From: Sphingobacteriaceae bacterium
GTDB taxonomy: Bacteria; Bacteroidota; Bacteroidia; B-17B0; Aurantibacillaceae
Length of the DNA stretch: 64,000 nucleotides
Direction of reading: 5' to 3'
Assembly (NCBI GenBank): GCA_046345155.1
Contig: JBKDKI010000003.1
Span: forward strand, 2,026-66,025
Positions 6,259 to 61,326 of this stretch are shown here, in pieces. The notes under the pieces are model-generated. The model was not told the DNA's origin. It ran no database searches and worked only from the letters and a program-made list of their open reading frames with translations. Every line of letters starts with the position of its first letter. Positions within the stretch are counted from its first letter, which is position 1. The translations under genes and the position numbers were made by a program.

Positions 6259-7205
6259 AGAAGTCAGGAATTCTTAGTTTAGTTGTATTGTTTTTTACTT
6301 TATGTAAAAAGGATTTTATTGTAGAGAACATTGAGGATAAAACCATCACGGTTAATGCACCTGCTAATAATCTTATCACCACAAATAATAAAATCACTTT
6401 TTGGTGGGAAGAGTTAGATGGCGCTGAAAGATATAATATCCAAGTAGTAAAACCATCCTTTGCAAATATCGCTGAAATTATAAGTGATACGAATATTACG
6501 AGTACAAAGTTTAACCTGACGTTACAACCCGGTATTTACCAGTGGCGCATTAAGGCTATAAATGCAGGTGGTAATACAGCTTTTCAAACCTTCAATTTAA
6601 AAGTTGATACCACCAGCAATTTAAGTAGTTTAACAGTAAGCACCATTGATCCACCCGCAAATTGGCTAACTGGAAATAAAAGAGTAAGTTTCTCTTGGAA
6701 TTCGTTAAATGCAGCAGATTCATATCAAATTGTTTTGTTGAACTCAGCAAATGGTACTATTAAAGATACAGCGACTACGCTAACAACATATACATACACA
6801 TTTCCGTTGCAGGGAGCTTATTCGTGGAAAATACGTGCGTTGAACGATTTTAGTATTTCACAATACAATGCAGCGATAACTTTTACTATTGATCAAACAG
6901 CTCCATCGGCACCAATTCCTACATCGCCCTCACATGGAGCAATTGTAACTCCAACAAATAACCTTTTATGGAATAGAATAGGGGCGCCGGATGCCAAGTA
7001 TGATAGCATTTTTGTTGCTACAGATTCTGCATTTACCAATATTATAAGTTATACTAAGTCATACGCCCAAACCATAGCAATTAACGCACTTAATAGTTCG
7101 CCACCCGCAACCGGTAATACCTATTGGTGGAGATTGCGCTCGGTGGATTCGGTAGGAAATAGATCGGTGTTAAGTAATCAGTTAAAATTTAAATTGAATC
7201 CATAA
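6255..7205 (+). CDS. Lipoprotein with tandem fibronectin type III-like domains
   Basis: Lipobox LFFTLC-KKD. Three repeats of the type W..L..A..Y.IQ...Y.WRI.A.N (WEELDGAERYNIQ...YQWRIKAIN; WNSLNAADSYQI...YSWKIRALN; YWWRLRSVD). Confidence 0.75.
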   Translation: MKKSGILSLVVLFFTLCKKDFIVENIEDKTITVNAPANNLITTNNKITFWWEELDGAERYNIQVVKPSFANIAEIISDTNITSTKFNLTLQPGIYQWRIKAINAGGNTAFQTFNLKVDTTSNLSSLTVSTIDPPANWLTGNKRVSFSWNSLNAADSYQIVLLNSANGTIKDTATTLTTYTYTFPLQGAYSWKIRALNDFSISQYNAAITFTIDQTAPSAPIPTSPSHGAIVTPTNNLLWNRIGAPDAKYDSIFVATDSAFTNIISYTKSYAQTIAINALNSSPPATGNTYWWRLRSVDSVGNRSVLSNQLKFKLNP

Positions 7206-7206
7206 A

Positions 7207-7704
7207 ATGTTAAAAGGAAAAAAGGGAATATATATTCTTATACCTCTTAACATCTTTATTTGGAGCTTCTTCGTATATCGTATTTTCTATTACGAATCGG
7301 AAGATACTATTGTAGAGATATCACAAACTCGCGTAAATACAGATAATCTAACTGATACAGCCATATATAAATTAAAGATGAACTATGAAGATCCTTTTTT
7401 GAAGAAAGAAGCTGTTTTACGATCTCATAATTTAATTGGGGAAGTGAGACCAAAACAAGAAGTGAAAAAGACTGAAACAAAGATCAAGCCGAAAGAGGAA
7501 CCAGTAAAGGAAATTCTGGATGTAAAATATCTTGGCCTAGTTAAGAACAACTCTAGTGGATTTGCAACAGCTATTGTAAGTATTAATGGTACTTCCAGGC
7601 TTATCAAGCAAGATGAAGTTGTTGGTGATATGTGTTTTAAGAATTTTACAAACGAGAGTTTAACAATACTAAAGAACAAGGAGAAAATAGTAATTCAGAA
7701 GTAA
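7207..7704 (+). CDS. GspC/PilP-like protein (TM + HR domain)
   Basis: N-terminal TM, Lys/Glu/Pro linker, then YLGLVKN...TAIVSINGTSRLIKQDEVVG, resembling the GspC HR/PilP beta domain. Confidence 0.6.
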   Translation: MLKGKKGIYILIPLNIFIWSFFVYRIFYYESEDTIVEISQTRVNTDNLTDTAIYKLKMNYEDPFLKKEAVLRSHNLIGEVRPKQEVKKTETKIKPKEEPVKEILDVKYLGLVKNNSSGFATAIVSINGTSRLIKQDEVVGDMCFKNFTNESLTILKNKEKIVIQK

Positions 7705-7827
7705 GTAAAGTTGGAATTCTAAATATTTAGTTTTTTTTAGAAGAAAATTAATGTTAATTATTTTAGTCTTTAAAGATTTAAATTTTTTTAGAACTTAAAC
7801 ACCCTTATTAATTATTAACTTTATTGC

Positions 7828-8043
7828 ATGGAACGTAAAGAGATATTGGAGCAGTTGGCAAGTTTGGAGTCGGTTTATGGATTAGGTGCAAGAAAGTACT
7901 TAAATGATTTGAATTTAGGAAAGCAGTTCATTTGTGAATGTTATGAGAGCATTCGCGAGGATCGCGCATCGATGGAAAAACATTTTGGAATAACCTTGGT
8001 AAAAAAAATAGTGACTTATGCAGAAGTGAACTGCGAGGACTAA
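7828..8043 (+). CDS. Small hypothetical protein (71 aa)
   Basis: ATG preceded by an AT-rich Bacteroidota-type initiation region. No recognisable motif. Confidence 0.45.
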   Translation: MERKEILEQLASLESVYGLGARKYLNDLNLGKQFICECYESIREDRASMEKHFGITLVKKIVTYAEVNCED

Positions 8044-8415
8044 AACTGAGTTCGGTTATGTTTGTCGTCATTGGGTTGCAGCTAAAGTTTGGCAGCCTTG
8101 CGTAGTTAGGTTTTCGAAGCATGAACTTTCTTAATCGATAAAAGATACTTTAAAAATATATATGTTTACTAGCGAGGGCAAATAAAAGTCGCAAATCAAT
8201 CGCTGTTCAGGACAAATTTAGTCCAAATTCAACTGCTTAAGTATAGTTGCCGTTACGTAAAAGTTTCTTGACTAGGGTACAACACAGTGATTTATATTTT
8301 AAATCCTAATTCAAATTAATTCATTAAAATGTACGTAATAAATATCTAACCACTTTTCACTCTTTGTGTGCTTGCATTCTAGTTTATAAATTGTTCACAA
8401 AGTAAGCTCAAGGTT

Positions 8416-8446
8416 TTTGGTATGAAAATGAAACTCATTAAATTTG
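8416..8446 (+). promoter_or_regulatory. Bacteroidota sigmaA promoter (-33 TTTG / -7 TAAATTTG)
   Basis: TTTG 8416-8419, 19-nt spacer, TAAATTTG 8439-8446. Confidence 0.6.
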
Positions 8447-22562: not shown

Positions 22563-23543
22563 ATGATCAAAGATTGGACAAAAGAAGAAATTTTAGAGGT
22601 GTATAACACACCTTTGATGGAATTGATCTATCGCGCTGCAGAAGTACACAAGCAATATCATAAAGTTGGTGAAGTTCAGGTAAGTTCATTGCTTTCTATT
22701 AAAACAGGCGGATGCCCTGAAGATTGCGCTTATTGTCCGCAGGCTGCACGTTACCAAACCGAAGTGAAGGTTCAGAAATTGATGAGTGTGGCGGAGATAA
22801 ACGAAGCTGCAGATAATGCAAAAGCTGGTGGTGCAAGTCGCATGTGCTTGGGTGCTGCATGGAGAGAGGTTCGTGATAACCGCGATTTTGATAAGGTATT
22901 AGATATGGTACGCACCATTAACAGTAAGGGTATGGAAGTATGCGCTACTTTAGGTATGGTTACCGAAGAGCAAGCCAAAAAACTGGCAGATGCAGGTTTA
23001 TATGCCTACAATCATAATTTAGATACATCAGAAGAGAATTACAATAATATCATTTCTACTCGTACATACGATGATCGTTTAAAAACCCTAGGAAATGTTC
23101 GTAAAGCAGGTTTAACGGTTTGTTCAGGTGGCATCATTGGAATGGGTGAAACTGCTGAAGACAGAGTAGGGATGTTGTACACATTAAGTTTATTACGTCC
23201 GCAACCGGAGAGTGTTCCAATTAACGCTTTAGTTGCAGTTGAAGGCACACCATTGGAAGAGCAACCTCCCGTGCCAATTTGGGATATGGTGCGCATGATC
23301 GCTACAACCCGTATTGTAATACCAACAACTGCTGTTCGTTTAAGTGCAGGTCGCATGAGTATGAGTATGGAAGGCCAAGCATTGTGTTTTATGGCCGGAG
23401 CAAATTCAATTTTTGCGGGCGATAAATTATTAACTACTCCAAATCCTCGTTTCAATCAGGATATGCAAATGTTTGAGATCCTCGGATTAAAACCTAAAAA
23501 AGCATATGCAGACGTTCGCAAGGAAGAAGTAGTAAATTCATAA
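22563..23543 (+). CDS. bioB: Biotin synthase
   Basis: Radical SAM motif [41 protein letters not shown]. Confidence 0.97.
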
Positions 23544-23551
23544 GATGTTGA

Positions 23552-24682
23552 ATGGGCAAGGTTCCTTCAAACATTAGTAATGCTTTACAAAACAGATCTA
23601 AAGAGGGATTATTACGTTCACTAACCAATACACATAGTGGTATTGATTTTATTAGTAACGATTATCTGGGCTTTTCGAAGCTGGGCTTAGTTACCAAAAA
23701 AGCCAATCAATTATTTCCATATGAATTACTGGTAACCGGTTCGGGAGGATCACGCTTGATTAGCGGTAATACCACATTTATAGATTCAACAGAGAAAAAA
23801 ATTGCGGCATTTCATAATGCCGATTCAGCACTTATTTTTAATTCGGGTTACGATGCGAACCTGGGTTTGTTATCATCTGTTCCGCAAAAGAACGATCTGG
23901 TGATCACTGATGAATTGATACATGCTTCCTTGATAGATGGTGTGCGATTAAGTTACGCCAAGCATTATAAATTCAAGCATAATGATGTGAAACATTTGGA
24001 AGAGTTGTTAATGAGGCATGCCAATTCCTTTGAGAATGTATTTGTTGTGGTTGAAAGTGTTTATTCAATGGATGGAGATGAAGCTCCGTTATTGGATATT
24101 ACAGAGTTGATAGGGAAAGTTAAGAATGTGTTTTTGATTGTTGATGAAGCACATGCCATTGGCGTTTTCGGAAAAAGTGGAAAAGGTTTGTGTACTGAAT
24201 TGAATATTGAAAAGATGTGTTTTGCACGAATTTATACTTACGGAAAAGCATTGGGTTGTCATGGTGCCGCCATTGTTGGTTCTGAGGACCTGAGAAGTTA
24301 CCTGATAAATTTTGCACGCTCATTCATTTATACAACGGCGTTACCAAGTCATTCTATTGCTAATATTTCGGCAGGATATGAATTGTTGCTTGAGAATTCA
24401 CAGCACGATCAGCTGCAGAATAATATTGGTTACTTTGTTGAAAATGTAAAACATCATTTTAAATTCATTAAAAGCAGAAGCGCCATTCAGTGTTTATTAT
24501 TGAATGATCGTAAAAAGGCCGATGAACTTGAAAGAACGCTTCGGGTAAATAATATCTTATGCAAAGCTGTAAAAAGCCCAACGGTTAAAGAAGGTAGTGA
24601 GCGTATTCGATTTTGTTTACACGCATTCAATACCAAAAGTGAGATCGATCAATTAATAGAAGTTTTAAGTAAAAGCAAATGA
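23552..24682 (+). CDS. bioF: 8-amino-7-oxononanoate synthase
   Basis: DFISNDYLG, GSGGSRL, FNSGYDAN, HASLIDG, VDEAHA, TYGKALG (PLP lysine). Confidence 0.93.
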   Translation: MGKVPSNISNALQNRSKEGLLRSLTNTHSGIDFISNDYLGFSKLGLVTKKANQLFPYELLVTGSGGSRLISGNTTFIDSTEKKIAAFHNADSALIFNSGYDANLGLLSSVPQKNDLVITDELIHASLIDGVRLSYAKHYKFKHNDVKHLEELLMRHANSFENVFVVVESVYSMDGDEAPLLDITELIGKVKNVFLIVDEAHAIGVFGKSGKGLCTELNIEKMCFARIYTYGKALGCHGAAIVGSEDLRSYLINFARSFIYTTALPSHSIANISAGYELLLENSQHDQLQNNIGYFVENVKHHFKFIKSRSAIQCLLLNDRKKADELERTLRVNNILCKAVKSPTVKEGSERIRFCLHAFNTKSEIDQLIEVLSKSK

Positions 24683-25299
24683 AACGATTTTTTATTACAG
24701 GGATAGGAACCAATGTTGGCAAAACGTTTTGTTCGGCTATTTTAACGGAAGCATTGCAGGCAGATTATTGGAAGCCTGTTCAAACCGGGGTTATCGAAAG
24801 TGCGGATGTGAATGAGGTTTCACGTTTGATCACCAATCAACGTACCCAATTTCAACGTGAGGCCTATTCATTCACTGCTCCTGTTTCTCCGCATTTAGCG
24901 GCGGCCATTGAAAATGAGGAGATCGAATTAAGTAAGATCGAATTACCAAACACAGCCAATAACCTGATCATTGAAGGTGCCGGCGGAATTTTGGTGCCAT
25001 TGAATAAAACCCACTATGTGATCGACATCGCAAAAAAGTTTGATGCCGAGGTGATATTGGTTGTTAGAAATTATCTGGGTTGTATCAATCATTCGCTTTT
25101 ATCAATTGATTATTTACTTAAAAATAATTTCAAATTGAAAGGATTGATCTTGAATGGAAATTTTGATCCGATGGTTGAAGAAGCAATAATTAATTATGCC
25201 AATACCCCTGTACTTGCCAGGTTCTATGAAATGAGCAAGGTTAATGAGCAAGTGGTTTCTGATCTGGCACGAACCATTAATAAAGAATTGTTCTTATGA
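24679..25299 (+). CDS. bioD: Dethiobiotin synthase
   Basis: FITGIGTNVGKT, YWKPVQTG, SPHLAA, IIEGAGG, YLGCINHSLL. Confidence 0.96.
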   Translation: MKRFFITGIGTNVGKTFCSAILTEALQADYWKPVQTGVIESADVNEVSRLITNQRTQFQREAYSFTAPVSPHLAAAIENEEIELSKIELPNTANNLIIEGAGGILVPLNKTHYVIDIAKKFDAEVILVVRNYLGCINHSLLSIDYLLKNNFKLKGLILNGNFDPMVEEAIINYANTPVLARFYEMSKVNEQVVSDLARTINKELFL

Positions 25300-26564
25300 A
25301 TTGGTTAGAAAAAGATAAACAATTTGTTTGGCATCCGTTCACGCATCAAAAATCGGCACAAGCACCGGTTTTGATCAAAAGTGCAAGCGGGTTATATTTC
25401 ACTGATGAAAATGACAATAAGATCATGGATGCCATTTCGAGTTGGTGGGTTAATTTGCACGGTCATGCGCATCCTTATATTTCACAAAAGGTAAGTGAGC
25501 AAGTAACTAGTTTAGAACACGCCATATTTAGTGATTTCACACATCGCCCGGCAATTGAATTGGCAGAACGGTTATTAAAGCATTTACCATCCAATCAATC
25601 CAAAGTGTTTTATTCGGATAATGGTTCAACTGCAGTTGAGGTGGCATTAAAAATGACCTTTCAATTCTGGCACAATCAAGGAACACCAAAATCATTATTC
25701 ATTGCTTTTGAAAATGCGTATCATGGTGATACCTTTGGTGGAATGAGTGTTGGAGCGCGTAATGTTTTTAATAACGCTTTCGAAAATCAGCTATTTAATG
25801 TTGCACATATTCCTTTACCTGCCAAGGAGAATATTCATCAAATAAAAGAAGTGCTGAGTGATTGGGTGCAAAATCATTCCATTGCCGGATTTATTTTTGA
25901 ACCTTTAGTTCAAGGTGCTGCTGGTATGTTAATGTATGAACATCACTTATTGGATGAGCTTATACTTTTTTGTAAGGAAAATGATATTATTACCATTGCC
26001 GATGAGGTAATGACAGGTTTTGGCAGAACAGGAACATTTTTTGCATCTGATCAATTACATAATAAACCGGACATCATTTGTTTATCAAAAGGACTAACCG
26101 GCGGATATATGCCATTGGGCGTTACAACGTGTGCGTCTTTTATTCATGAGGCATATTTGAGTGATGATAAAACAAAAACATTTTTTCACGGTCACAGTTA
26201 TACCGCAAATCCAACGGCATGCAGCGCCGCATTAGCTAGTTTAGATCTGATGGAAGAGGAGGAAACCTGGGCGCAAATTCGCATGATCGAAGAATCACAC
26301 CGTTTAATTTTCAATGAATTGAATCAATACAAAGCATGTGCCGATGTGCGCGTGAAAGGAACTATTTTGGCAATTGAATTGCGAACAGATGAGGCAACGC
26401 ATTATTTAAATTCGGCTTCAGAAGGTATTGCGGCTTATTTTTTAAAGAAGGGAATTTTATTACGCCCTTTAGGTAATGTGTTTTATGTGATACCGCCATA
26501 TTGTATATCAAAGGAAGAATTGAATAGGATCTATTCAACGATCAAAGAATTTTTGAATCAGTAG
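25296..26564 (+). CDS. bioA: Adenosylmethionine-8-amino-7-oxononanoate aminotransferase
   Basis: VWHPFT, DAISSWWVNLHGH, YHGDTFG, ADEVMTGFGRTG, LSKGLTGG, HGHSYTANP. Confidence 0.96.
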   Translation: MNWLEKDKQFVWHPFTHQKSAQAPVLIKSASGLYFTDENDNKIMDAISSWWVNLHGHAHPYISQKVSEQVTSLEHAIFSDFTHRPAIELAERLLKHLPSNQSKVFYSDNGSTAVEVALKMTFQFWHNQGTPKSLFIAFENAYHGDTFGGMSVGARNVFNNAFENQLFNVAHIPLPAKENIHQIKEVLSDWVQNHSIAGFIFEPLVQGAAGMLMYEHHLLDELILFCKENDIITIADEVMTGFGRTGTFFASDQLHNKPDIICLSKGLTGGYMPLGVTTCASFIHEAYLSDDKTKTFFHGHSYTANPTACSAALASLDLMEEEETWAQIRMIEESHRLIFNELNQYKACADVRVKGTILAIELRTDEATHYLNSASEGIAAYFLKKGILLRPLGNVFYVIPPYCISKEELNRIYSTIKEFLNQ

Positions 26565-35741: not shown

Positions 35742-36995
35742 ATGGGTTATTTATTTACCTCAGAATCTGTGTCAGAAGGACACCCGGACAAAGTAGCTGA
35801 TCAAATTTCAGACGCTTTAATTGATAACTTTTTAGCATTCGATCCTTCTTCAAAGGTAGCATGTGAAACATTGGTAACTACTGGTCAGGTTGTTTTGGCT
35901 GGTGAAGTGAAATCTAAGACTTACTTAGATGTTCAGGAAATTGCCCGTCAGGTTATTCGTAAAATTGGTTACACCAAAGCAGAATACATGTTCGAAGCAA
36001 ATTCGTGTGGTGTGCTTTCTGCGATCCATGAGCAATCTCAAGATATTAATCAGGGTGTTGAGCGTAAGAAAAAGGAAGATCAAGGTGCAGGTGATCAAGG
36101 TATGATGTTTGGTTATGCAACTAACGAAACGCCTAACTATATGCCATTAGCATTAGACCTTGCACATGGTATTTTATTAGAGTTAGCTGCTTTACGTCGC
36201 GAAAATAAAGAAATTAAATATTTACGTCCCGATGCAAAATCTCAGGTTACTTTAGAATATGATGATAACAACAAACCGGTGCGTATTGATGCGATCGTTG
36301 TTTCTACTCAGCACGATGATTTTGATTCAGAAAGTAAAATGTTAGCGAAGATCAAAAAAGACATCATCGACATTTTGATCCCTCGCGTAAAGAAAAAATA
36401 TCCGAAGTACGCTAGCTTATTTAACGATAAGATCAATTACCATATCAACCCAACCGGTAAATTCGTTATTGGTGGTCCGCATGGAGATACAGGATTAACC
36501 GGTCGTAAGATCATTGTTGATACTTACGGTGGAAAAGGTGCTCACGGTGGTGGTGCATTCTCTGGTAAAGATCCAAGTAAGGTTGACCGTTCAGCAGCTT
36601 ATGCAACGCGTCACATTGCTAAGAACTTAGTTGCGGCAGGTGTTTGTTCTGAAGTTTTAGTACAAGTATCTTATGCAATTGGTGTTGCAAAACCAATGGG
36701 TATCTATATCAATACTTATGGCACTGCAAATGTAAAAATGACCGATGGTGAGATCGCTAAGATCGTTGAGAAAGTATTTGATATGCGCCCTTACTTCATT
36801 GAGCAACGTTTAAAATTACGTACGCCAATGTATAGCGAAACTGCTGCATACGGACATATGGGACGTAAGAACGAAATAGTTACTAAAACTTTTAAATCAC
36901 CTGATGGAAAAACAAAAACTGTAAAAGTTGAGTTATTTACTTGGGAGAAATTAGATTATGTAGCTAAAGTAAAAGCTGCGTTTAAGATCAAATAA
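35742..36995 (+). CDS. metK: S-adenosylmethionine synthetase
   Basis: [56 protein letters not shown]. Confidence 0.98.
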
Positions 36996-37016: not shown

Positions 37017-37050
37017 AAAACCCTGATCCAGTATCAGGGTTTTTTGTTTT
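37017..37050 (+). terminator. Rho-independent terminator of metK
   Basis: aaaaccctgat-ccagt-atcagggtttt followed by a U-tract. Confidence 0.88.
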
Positions 37051-37138
37051 GGTAAAGGCCTTACTATGAAAAGCGCTTAAAATTTTGTAACTTTGGTAGT
37101 ATCAGGTGTGAGCGATCATACCTGCTTAATTGGTTAAA

Positions 37139-37720
37139 ATGAAAAAAATTGTATCCGTTTTCTTGTTTGCAATTGTTGTAATGATAGCATTTGCAGCTAC
37201 TCCCGGAAGATCGAGTTCCGGCGCACCTCCTTCGCATACCGGTGCCCCTGATGAAAAAACATGTGCTACGGCAGGTTGCCATGATGATGCCGGCGAAGTA
37301 AATTCAGGCACTGCCACATTGGAAATGGAATTAGGAAATTCGATCAAAAATTATGTTGCCGGAAAAACCTATGCGGTTAAAGTTAAAATTTCTGATAGCA
37401 ATAAGAGCCGATTTGGTTTTCAGATATTGGCGATGGACCCAGAATCAAAAACAAGTGTGGGTAAATTTACCATTACCGATAAAGAACGAACACAATTGGT
37501 AAGTAATTCGTATGAATTAAAGGATCGTGAATATGTAACCTATACCTTTAATGGCACAGATGCTGTTTCCAATGGTTTGGGCGAGTGGGTGGTAAATTGG
37601 ACAGCTCCTGAGAATGCAACGAAGCCTGTAGTGTTTTATGTAGCAGGCGTATCAGCTAACGATGATATGTCAGATAAAGGCGATAAAGTGTATACCAGAT
37701 CATTTACTTTTAATAAATAA
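37139..37720 (+). CDS. Secreted Reeler-like (choice-of-anchor V type) protein with CX4CH motif
   Basis: Signal peptide, HTGAPDEKTCATAGCH, YVAGKTY.V.V, RFGFQI, W...WTAP...VVFYVAGVSAN. Start reassigned from TTG 37130 to ATG 37139. Confidence 0.75.
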   Translation: MKKIVSVFLFAIVVMIAFAATPGRSSSGAPPSHTGAPDEKTCATAGCHDDAGEVNSGTATLEMELGNSIKNYVAGKTYAVKVKISDSNKSRFGFQILAMDPESKTSVGKFTITDKERTQLVSNSYELKDREYVTYTFNGTDAVSNGLGEWVVNWTAPENATKPVVFYVAGVSANDDMSDKGDKVYTRSFTFNK

Positions 37721-37727
37721 GCAGATC

Positions 37728-38606
37728 ATGAAGAACAAGATAGTTTATACCATTTGTTTAGCCTGCTTATTTATATGTGGAGGCTATACCATTCAATTTA
37801 AAAAAACATCAGGCGCACATCCCGGCAGCACCGGTGCCCCGGGCGATCAAACCTGTGCGCAATTAGGATGTCATGCGGATGCACAAGTAACAGCTAATGC
37901 TGTAAATAATAATACCTTGATAATTTCAAGTGTTGATTCGTCATACATTCCGGGCGCAACCTATCAGCTAACCTTAATGGTGCAGGGTTCAATGCCAACA
38001 TCAAAATTTGGTTTTGAGATCGTTGCATTAAAAGATACTGATAGTTTAAATGTTGGTCAGTTTATTATTACAGACCCAAGTCCTGAACGAACACAGATCA
38101 TCAATCATACCTATAATTCTGATATTCGTTATTCGGTTACACATAAAACCGCAGGTACCGCTGCCTTGGCATCTAACTTCACATATTGGACATTCGATTG
38201 GAAAGCACCATTGGTTAATGAAGGAAAGATCACATTTTGGTATGCTACAAATTGTACAAACAATAATGGTCAAAATTCAGGCGATTATATCTTTTTACAT
38301 TCATTTCAAATTCATCCGGTACCTGATGCATCTATTCATGAAATAGCAACAAGTTACGATCTGAAGGCTGCTTTTGATAAAGAGACAAATGAGTTGTTAG
38401 TTAGCTATGACCTGAGAGGTAAGCGCACAGTACAATTAAATGTGTTTGATATTGCAGGTAAAAATGTATATAGCGGCGCACCTATGAAATTATCAGGTAA
38501 ACAAAAACAATCGGTATCAATTGGGGAAGGAAACATAAAAGGGACCTATTTGATCCAATTACAAATCGACGGGCATAAAGCCACCAAAAAGGTGCTAGTG
38601 AATTAA
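37728..38606 (+). CDS. Reeler-like (choice-of-anchor V type) protein with CX4CH motif and T9SS C-terminal domain
   Basis: STGAPGDQTCAQLGCH, YIPGATY, KFGFEI, WTFDWKAP...ITFWYA...NNNG. CTD VQLNVFDIAGKNV...GTYLIQLQIDG...TKKVLV. Start reassigned to ATG 37728. Confidence 0.8.
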   Translation: MKNKIVYTICLACLFICGGYTIQFKKTSGAHPGSTGAPGDQTCAQLGCHADAQVTANAVNNNTLIISSVDSSYIPGATYQLTLMVQGSMPTSKFGFEIVALKDTDSLNVGQFIITDPSPERTQIINHTYNSDIRYSVTHKTAGTAALASNFTYWTFDWKAPLVNEGKITFWYATNCTNNNGQNSGDYIFLHSFQIHPVPDASIHEIATSYDLKAAFDKETNELLVSYDLRGKRTVQLNVFDIAGKNVYSGAPMKLSGKQKQSVSIGEGNIKGTYLIQLQIDGHKATKKVLVN

Positions 38607-38613
38607 TAATTAA

Positions 38614-39372
38614 TTATTTCTTTTTCTTTGAAACAGCGCCGGGGCTAATTTCTTTCCAACCTGTTATATCGCGAATTACAACTGATGCGCAGGTTAAACC
38701 GAATACAGCAGGTAAATAAGAAATGGTTCCATAAGCCGATTTCTTGAATTTGCTCCCATCTGTTCGCATGATCGAAAATTTAGCAGGTATCTCGGTGCTA
38801 AAAACACATTTAATGCCTTTATAAATATTCATGTAACGCAAGCGTTTACGCACGTATTGTGCCATAGGGCAGGTGTGTGTATCCTTTATATCCACCACAG
38901 ATAATTTTGTTGGATCCATTTTACCGCCGGCTCCCATACTTGAAATAATACGTTGATTATTGTAGTAAGCCATTTGGATCAAATATAATTTTGGTGAGAT
39001 ACTATCGATGGCATCAATCACATAAGTGAATTTTTGTTTCATAAATTCCTTCATGTCATCCGGTGTTTTAAATTCATTAATTGCCGTAATGTCGCAATCC
39101 GGATTGATATCCTTTAAACGCGCATACATCAAGTCGGCTTTGTTTTGCCCGTGAGTTGATGAAAGAGCCTGTATTTGTCGGTTTCTGTTGGTAGGATCAA
39201 CGGTATCGCCATCTATGATGGTCATTTTTCCAACGCCCGCTCTGCAAATAGCTTCTGCGGCATAACCACCAACACCTCCAAGGCCAACCACTAAAACATG
39301 TGCGTTTATTAATTTTTCAATTCCTTTTTCGCCAACCAATAATTTGGTGCGTTCCATCCATTGTGTTTCCAT
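38614..39372 (-). CDS. tcdA: tRNA threonylcarbamoyladenosine dehydratase (ThiF/MoeB family)
   Basis: RTKLLVG, VVGLGGVGG, DGDTVDPTNRNRQ, DAIDS, SSMGAGGKMDP, GTISYLPAVFG. Confidence 0.9.
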   Translation of the reverse strand: METQWMERTKLLVGEKGIEKLINAHVLVVGLGGVGGYAAEAICRAGVGKMTIIDGDTVDPTNRNRQIQALSSTHGQNKADLMYARLKDINPDCDITAINEFKTPDDMKEFMKQKFTYVIDAIDSISPKLYLIQMAYYNNQRIISSMGAGGKMDPTKLSVVDIKDTHTCPMAQYVRKRLRYMNIYKGIKCVFSTEIPAKFSIMRTDGSKFKKSAYGTISYLPAVFGLTCASVVIRDITGWKEISPGAVSKKKK

Positions 39373-60948: not shown

Positions 60949-61326
60949 CTAGTTTGTACTAACTGTATTCGCCTCTCTGTATGATAAAATAAACTTCGTT
61001 AATTTATCTTTTTCAGCTGCTGTTAGCTCAGCCTTTGGCGACATGTCATCGATCTCATGCTTCCATTTTTTCTCACTGAATTTGGTGATCTCAAAATTCT
61101 CATGACATTTCGAACATTTTTCACGGTAAATGGTATTTCCTTCTTTTAATTCTGCTAATGTAGCAGTTGGCCACGTTTTTTGAGCCACTGCTAATTCTCT
61201 TTCTGTTGGGTTGAACTTCACAACTACTGGTTTAGGAGCTTCTTTCGGAGCTTCTTTAGTGGTTTCTTTTTTTGTTTTGCAATTCACTAAAATAATTGCA
61301 GCAACTATTGCCAATGCGTATTTCAT
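60949..61326 (-). CDS. Small monoheme c-type cytochrome lipoprotein
   Basis: Lipobox IILVNC, GNTIYREKCSKCH (CxxCH), distal Met in IDDMSPKA. Confidence 0.85.
   Translation of the reverse strand: MKYALAIVAAIILVNCKTKKETTKEAPKEAPKPVVVKFNPTERELAVAQKTWPTATLAELKEGNTIYREKCSKCHENFEITKFSEKKWKHEIDDMSPKAELTAAEKDKLTKFILSYREANTVSTN

Follow-up and report, generated by a model that had tools for sequence, protein, structure and literature searches.

Two tandem genes, here called A and B, lie in a 64,000-nucleotide stretch of the genome of a Sphingobacteriaceae bacterium (NCBI GenBank assembly GCA_046345155.1, contig JBKDKI010000003.1, positions 2,026 to 66,025 of the forward strand; "the window" below means this whole stretch). 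With a probability of roughly 0.55, we read their products as Sec-exported monoheme c-type cytochromes built on a Reeler-like beta-sandwich rather than on a classical cytochrome fold. In both proteins the motif C-Xn-CH (CATAGCH in A and CAQLGCH in B) begins a few residues past a hydrophobic signal peptide. We favor heme over a bound metal ion or a structural disulfide because the histidine is fixed next to the second cysteine, because the spacing to the first cysteine varies freely across the family and includes the canonical form, and because His and Tyr alternate at a fourth site, in addition to the export signals.

Gene A encodes 193 amino acids and gene B 292, the latter protein beginning MKNKIV. 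An earlier ATG for B at 37662, present in the open reading frame (ORF) list, was rejected since orthologues and public gene calls begin at 37728. As an earlier note on this sequence had described, the genes are tandem paralogues 7 bp apart, each encoding a signal peptide, a TGAP-containing arm and a C-X4-CH motif. The proteins read ...SSSGAPPSHTGAPDEKTCATAGCHDD in A and ...KKTSGAHPGSTGAPGDQTCAQLGCHAD in B. They are 31% identical (E 9e-32), and because they are true paralogues the common motif reflects shared descent rather than chance. Hydrophobic N-terminal helices (residues 2-19 in A and 2-18 in B) are followed by small-residue cleavage sites, and a possible lipoprotein signal in B (LFIC/GG) was discarded because the Cys is absent in orthologues. 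Since both carry signal peptides, both proteins should reach the compartment where heme c is attached. The N-terminal arm of B, TSGAHPGSTGAPGDQT, runs directly into CAQLGCH and includes the motif xGxH[PE]xSTGAP, which was found in every B-like protein whose N-terminal arm is recovered; A-like proteins without a C-terminal sorting domain have a His directly before TGAP.

Both proteins belong to the NCBIfam family NF041895, "choice-of-anchor V" (cutoff 42), with 96.8 bits for A over residues 17-189 and 89.4 bits for B over residues 22-189, and public records give their close relatives the same name. They also pass the cutoff of 21 for the Pfam Reeler family PF02014, with 31.4 bits for A and 24.9 bits for B. 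AlphaFold2 models, built on alignments of approximately 146-149 sequences, reached a predicted local distance difference test (pLDDT) score of 96.1 for A and 91.2 for B and place the motif on an N-terminal arm, well ordered but of non-regular structure, which leads into a beta-sandwich. The best Foldseek match of both models is the reeler domain of F-spondin (template modeling (TM) score 0.59-0.74 normalized by target), which was also matched by PDB profile search (E 5e-4) and by hhalign (97% probability). The Reeler-like nature of the proteins, claimed in the earlier note, was thereby upheld by both family and structure, and so was its statement that only the second gene carries the C-terminal sorting domain (CTD) of the T9SS (type IX secretion system). 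TIGR04183 matches B (26.8 bits, cutoff 23, residues 225-292) and not A; Pfam PF18962 gives 22.4 bits for B, below its cutoff of 27, and in the model of B a separate, confident beta-sandwich at residues 213-291 corresponds to the CTD. B is therefore a predicted T9SS type A cargo. A ends straight after its Reeler-like domain with no sorting domain and is not a type A cargo. Among the NF041895 members examined, the domain occurs both with and without a C-terminal sorting signal, and long members add PKD, FN3 and Ig-type repeats. The family as a whole is large, with at least 6,695 clusters at 50% identity in an exhaustive profile search (E <= 1e-3).

Across 146-149 diverse aligned representatives, the only invariant columns are the two Cys and the His of the motif, a single Trp and two Gly. 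The motif triad likewise shows 100% conservation in 221 unique domain sequences, a set selected for carrying the motif (226 of 228 candidates had it). The earlier note had treated a poorly conserved histidine as evidence that would speak against heme; the histidine is invariant in both sets and always stands directly after the second Cys. The position of the first Cys moves, with a spacing of 2-8 residues. Of the top 150 representatives, 143 have a spacing of 4, three of 6, two of 2, one of 5 and one of 8. Closely related members of a distant clade differ from one another in this respect, with CX2CH, CX3CH, CX4CH or CX5CH occupying one and the same position. A sister subfamily (83.5 bits on NF041895 and likewise named choice-of-anchor V by NCBI) has the canonical CXXCH in 35 of its 47 members. 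Because the site is an ordinary CXXCH elsewhere in NF041895, the seemingly atypical CX4CH of A and B is the local form of a family site, for which the consensus is C-A-x-[SA]-G-C-H-x-D. For heme c attachment, CX2CH, CX3CH and CX4CH are all recognized motifs, in which the His acts as proximal ligand (PMC11492766). The description of CX4CH as a heme-type motif in the earlier note has thus gained from its positional equivalence to canonical CXXCH in the sister subfamilies, and it fits covalent heme. The 8-mer CATAGCHD encoded by gene A is also identical to a segment of Desulfovibrio vulgaris Miyazaki cytochrome c3 (1it1/1j0o), a heme-binding CX4CH site; this identity is a lead on local loop requirements rather than a sign of homology.

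Two variants within the family were also observed. A third choice-of-anchor V subfamily (L022 14011-14853, plus strand, and P0312-P0346) reads TGSPYDG..C..CHGGG and combines a canonical CXXCH with a T9SS CTD; in L022 this CXXCH-type gene shares an island with an A/B pair. In the distant clade (P0270-P0300), a loop of the sandwich can contain an extra and variable Cys pair (for example, CGNLASVLLNC), which some members have and their close relatives lack and which probably forms an ordinary disulfide.

A fourth conserved position was found by comparing the subgroups separately, as it is hidden in the bulk alignment. It corresponds to Tyr135 in A and His139 in B, both located at the end of a beta-strand in the respective model. 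His or Tyr occupies this column in 215 of the 221 domains (Tyr in 116 and His in 99), with Gln in 4 and Ser in 1. The distribution follows the subgroups: His is present in 100% of B-like proteins, 86% of the CXXCH subfamily and 65% of the distant clade, and Tyr in 85% of A-like proteins. An attempt to place the column beside the CH motif by means of the Cys44-Cys128 disulfide of F-spondin was dropped because the alignments disagree: an ungapped count puts Cys128 on Tyr135 of A, and hhalign introduces an 8-residue gap and puts it on Ser124 of A with low confidence.

The Tyr-type and His-type paralogues are also organized in a conserved manner. A contig profile search with gene A returned six close relatives, and a metagenome search with alignment A1 returned 21 loci. 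Where a tandem pair is present, the A-like (Tyr-type) gene comes first and the B-like (His-type) gene second in 26 of 26 loci, and the two are separated by -17 to +37 bp in 25 of them. The exception is L003, where the B-like gene (6579-7465) lacks its 5' part and the ORF starts with MGCH inside the motif, 142 bp past gene A; a frameshift or an error of assembly seems likelier here than a true truncation. In L019, L020 and L023-L026 the A-like member has kept the T9SS domain, and the CTD-less state of gene A is for this reason a lineage-specific loss. The division into a periplasmic and a surface protein suggested by the earlier note consequently agrees with the window, where B is tagged and A is not, and fails as a general rule, since both members have a CTD in those loci.

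The following mechanism would account for these features. After export, the periplasmic System II synthase CcsBA would attach heme through thioether bonds to Cys42 and Cys47 in A and to Cys43 and Cys48 in B. The adjacent His (His48 in A and His49 in B) would serve as the proximal iron ligand, and the likely distal ligand would be provided about 90 positions later on a beta-strand, by Tyr135 in A and His139 in B. The pair would accordingly combine a His/Tyr heme with a His/His heme of different potentials. B would then be carried through the T9SS and anchored on the cell surface, while A, whose sorting domain was lost in this lineage, would stay periplasmic or travel bound to B. The tight operon with its conserved order of A then B suggests that the two act jointly as redox partners. 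System II with CcsBA is what Bacteroidota use (PMC13645880). Elsewhere in the window (60949-61326, minus strand), an ORF of 125 amino acids has a lipoprotein-like N-terminus (...ILVNC), a CSKCH motif and sub-threshold cytochrome c matches (Pfam Cytochrome_CBB3, 22.3 bits, cutoff 27). This ORF probably encodes a small c-type cytochrome; if so, the organism would be able to mature heme c.

Several observations weigh against heme. No heme protein appears among the top 50 Foldseek neighbors of either model, and comparing A and B with the cytochrome c models of Pfam and NCBIfam gave no match, even with E allowed up to 1. To the best of our knowledge, no Reeler domain binds heme. No Met is conserved in the family, and the minority of members with Gln or Ser at the His/Tyr column would be left without a distal ligand. 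A cytochrome c synthase with its WWD motif was not found in the window or the related loci, which together fall far short of whole genomes, nor did we find a report of a T9SS-exported c-type cytochrome in the literature. Finally, the copper genes next to many related pairs fit a Cys/His metal site equally well. It is because of the missing cytochrome or heme-fold match, the lack of a heme-binding Reeler precedent and these copper-rich neighborhoods that we keep the heme reading at about 0.55.

The neighborhoods deserve closer description, as they bear on the most serious alternative. Of the 18 loci whose downstream sequence extends to 1 kb or more, 10 encode a T9SS-tagged thioredoxin-like protein of approximately 260 amino acids directly after the pair. 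In these proteins CxxC, a His and a Met are invariant and there is a GMP loop of the cis-Pro type; they match thioredoxins and thiol-disulfide oxidoreductases in the PDB weakly, and loosely resemble Sco or TlpA proteins. Similarly, of the 16 loci with 3 kb or more on the downstream side, 7 have the pair followed by a CueO-like multicopper oxidase that bears a T9SS tag (349 bits on NF008205, where the cutoff is 525). Other recurrent neighbors encode a CopZ-like HMA protein, an outer-membrane protein whose last domain is HMBD, an AraC regulator whose N-terminus resembles HMA, a HYC_CC_PP/DUF8199 protein, ArsR-type regulators and a CusA-type pump fused to an outer-membrane factor. The islands listed in the table hold one to three CTD-bearing thioredoxin-like CxxC proteins along with CTD-bearing CueO-like oxidase, CopZ-like, HMBD, AraC and HYC_CC_PP/DUF8199 genes; no description of such a T9SS-linked copper/redox island was found in the literature. 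In L010, MbnP-family and CCP_MauG (MbnH-like di-heme peroxidase) genes, apparently a gene pair of the copper-acquisition type, are located just upstream of the pair and oxidase cluster (6597-8443, minus strand). Members with the canonical CXXCH are found in other settings. In L034 (5207-9547), the CXXCH member P0301 comes directly after two genes, one resembling cytochrome bd subunit I and containing a cytochrome c domain, the other unannotated (378 amino acids), and is itself followed by a rubrerythrin gene; this may represent a respiratory or oxidative-stress setting in a non-Bacteroidia lineage. The contexts of the CXXCH subfamily offered only common TonB-receptor neighbors, and those of two single CXXCH variants gave no information, P0257 lying on a contig of 1.3 kb and P0250 among housekeeping genes. 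Taken together, the gene content suggests that extracytoplasmic redox and copper are the theme of the related neighborhoods.

Such a setting would equally suit proteins that bind a metal directly, most likely copper, with the two Cys, the adjacent His and the distant His/Tyr holding Cu(I)/Cu(II) or Zn. Acting as a periplasmic and surface metallochaperone or buffer, the pair would load or feed the T9SS-secreted CueO-like oxidase, with the thioredoxin-like proteins keeping its thiols reduced. The pair does lie within a copper-type island in about half of the related loci, the invariant CxxC, His and Met of the Sco/TlpA-like neighbors would be in keeping with such a role, and the copper-binding protein YcnI is among the weaker fold neighbors of A (rank 20, TM 0.38/0.54). 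The last likeness, however, is generic beta-sandwich similarity, and neither A nor B has a Pfam or NCBIfam match to known copper-protein families, among them the chaperone families (HMA/CopZ, CopC, PCuAC, Sco, YcnI). Copper genes are moreover missing near the pair in the window and near those of L004, L009 (carried by Aurantibacillus circumpalustris), L023 and L025. The site itself is also poorly suited to a metal ion: it is rare for a Cys and its immediate successor to bind one and the same ion, yet the CH adjacency is the one fixed feature here, close relatives differ by 2 to 8 residues in where the first Cys stands, and a His-to-Tyr swap at the fourth position would be unusual for Cu or Zn. 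We therefore regard direct metal binding as unlikely, though it is the alternative to be taken most seriously.

In an improbable third reading, A and B would be surface modules for binding or adhesion that hold no cofactor, as in eukaryotic Reeler domains; the Cys pair would staple the N-terminal arm to the sandwich as a structural disulfide, and the His would be structural or contact a ligand. Fold and profile do match the cofactor-free reeler domain of F-spondin, in which an N-terminal Cys takes part in a disulfide, the compartment reached on export is an oxidizing one, and the repeats of the long members are typical of surface proteins. Yet it would be out of the ordinary for a structural disulfide to be the best conserved feature over thousands of divergent bacterial sequences, and ordinary-looking extra Cys pairs come and go in one clade whereas C-Xn-CH never does. 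This reading would also leave unexplained why an invariant His adjoins the second Cys, why loop length varies freely, why the fourth position is conserved as His or Tyr, and why Tyr-type and His-type paralogues are paired.

Returning to the monoheme cytochrome reading, the thioredoxin-like CxxC proteins and CueO-like oxidases beside many relatives point to cell-surface redox or copper chemistry, and on gene content the best reading is that A and B would be tied to this chemistry and not to iron uptake. The iron-acquisition role raised by the earlier note accordingly found no backing, as the recurrent neighbors (thioredoxin-like CxxC proteins, CueO-like oxidase, CopZ-like and HMBD proteins, CusA-type pump) do not point that way, nor does the evidence speak for an electron relay across the outer membrane. 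At the level of sequence the family is not undescribed: it is already named in NCBIfam, although we found no functional study of it, and the A and B genes themselves are not new, being members of a catalogued family that the Prokaryotic Genome Annotation Pipeline (PGAP) would name. What does appear to be new is the quartet of C-Xn-CH and His/Tyr with its equivalence to canonical CXXCH, together with the conserved Tyr-type/His-type tandem and its apparent association with secreted thioredoxin-like proteins and a CueO-like oxidase.

A broader proposal, which we put forward tentatively and hold to be a little short of an even bet, is that NF041895 constitutes a large and unrecognized class of monoheme c-type cytochromes, and that the Bacteroidia pairs with their thioredoxin-like and CueO-like partners form an undescribed outer-surface redox module. 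Throughout the family, heme would be held on the N-terminal arm by C-X2-8-CH and capped by a His or Tyr of the beta-sandwich, with display at the surface by the T9SS and possibly by other sorting systems. If heme is indeed bound, thousands of proteins flagged by heme-motif counting have been missed by fold- or family-based annotation, c-type cytochromes gain a new fold class, and the T9SS serves Bacteroidota as a route for putting cytochromes on the cell surface. A first biochemical lead would also be gained for the Reeler domain, a companion of heme-binding modules in eukaryotic ferric reductases. The link with the CueO-like oxidase, thioredoxin-like proteins and copper genes points to an extracellular module, for redox or copper detoxification, in Bacteroidia that are abundant in fresh water and soil. 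Should the site prove to bind copper or form a disulfide instead, it would still provide a functional handle on a very large named family.

Within the window, the pair is an isolated two-gene unit among housekeeping genes, bounded as listed in the table by metK with its terminator-like hairpin and by a convergent ThiF-family gene; a TatD-family gene downstream also converges on A and B. The candidate Bacteroidetes-type -7 box upstream of A remains a candidate only, and is weak evidence because TAnnTTTG is not enriched in the window (79 found versus 98 expected). A scan for sigma-70 promoters gave fewer matches than expected, and no Rfam element was found within or around the pair. Base composition is uniform, and there is therefore no sign of recent transfer. 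The locus is present in freshwater metagenomes, and a near-identical contig (L001) derives from a Bacteroidia metagenome-assembled genome from Lake Mendota. Away from the pair, four ORFs at 22563-26564 (plus strand) have translations resembling the N-termini of BioB-, BioF-, BioD- and BioA-like proteins of biotin synthesis, as far as can be read from the sequence.

Table. Features of the A/B locus in the window and copper/redox islands at related loci.
Feature	Position	Strand	Remarks
metK	35742-36995		upstream of gene A; identified from translation
Intrinsic-terminator-like hairpin after metK	37017-37043	+	11-bp stem, then T run; 5' boundary of the two-gene unit
TAACTTTG, candidate Bacteroidetes-type -7 promoter box TAnnTTTG	37088-37095	+	44 nt upstream of the ATG of gene A
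Gene A (A-like, Tyr-type paralogue)	37139-37720	+	choice-of-anchor V / Reeler-like; signal peptide; no C-terminal sorting domain; stop TAA at 37718-37720
Signal peptide of A, MKKIVSVFLFAIVVMIAFA/AT	37139-37201	+	cleavage site judged by eye; model helix at residues 2-19
N-terminal arm of A, SSSGAPPSHTGAPDEKT	37211-37261	+	holds the conserved GAP...TGAP.E motif and His33
His33 of A	37235-37237	+	conserved among CTD-less A-like proteins
C42-A-T-A-G-C47-H48 of A	37262-37282	+	proposed heme c attachment site; invariant C, C, H
Tyr135 of A	37541-37543	+	candidate distal ligand; end of model strand 131-135
Spacer gcagatc, 7 bp	37721-37727	+	between stop codon of A and ATG of B; operon-like coupling
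Gene B (B-like, His-type paralogue)	37728-38606	+	choice-of-anchor V / Reeler-like; signal peptide and T9SS type A CTD; ATG at 37728
His31 of B	37818-37820	+	in the arm motif xGxH[PE]xSTGAP
C43-A-Q-L-G-C48-H49 of B	37854-37874	+	proposed heme c attachment site; invariant C, C, H
His139 of B	38142-38144	+	candidate distal ligand; end of model strand 132-139
T9SS type A C-terminal sorting domain of B	38364-38603	+	residues about 213-292; TIGR04183 and model
ThiF-family gene	38614-39372	-	convergent; closes the unit at its 3' side; not part of the A/B system
T9SS-linked copper/redox islands beside the pair	L002 7486-12079; L006 7492-11509; L010 9053-14003; L011 5973-17569; L014 9445-11991; L019 1916-12946; L022 9544-16453		related loci

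Among known systems, the nearest description is NF041895 itself, which includes the MXAN_6652 MYXO-CTERM family NF041894 and which A and B match over the whole domain. Its name describes domain architecture only, and no function, cofactor, structure or biochemical study of the family was found in the literature. A and B share their fold with Reeler PF02014 and the F-spondin structures (2zot, 2zou, 3coo) at an identity of only about 20%. Relative to F-spondin they add the N-terminal arm with GAP...TGAP and C-Xn-CH, and the Cys positions of F-spondin are not conserved; we know of no eukaryotic Reeler domain that carries a cofactor. Cytochrome c3 of D. vulgaris Miyazaki has no homology to A outside the 8-mer, and whereas it is a small, tetraheme and mostly helical protein, A and B each present one motif on a beta-sandwich. 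YcnI, CopC/PcoC and PCuAC, of CopA/PcoA/CueO-type systems, are likewise small exported beta-sandwich proteins encoded beside a multicopper oxidase, but they bind copper via His and Met or an N-terminal His brace and not via C-Xn-CH. Cytochrome f and the P460 / c'-beta proteins have no sequence relationship with A or B, are not among their top 50 fold neighbors and differ in ligand set, with the N-terminal amine in cytochrome f and a five-coordinate heme in P460 and c'-beta; yet they carry a single heme c near the N-terminus of, or onto, a beta-sandwich, as we propose for A and B.

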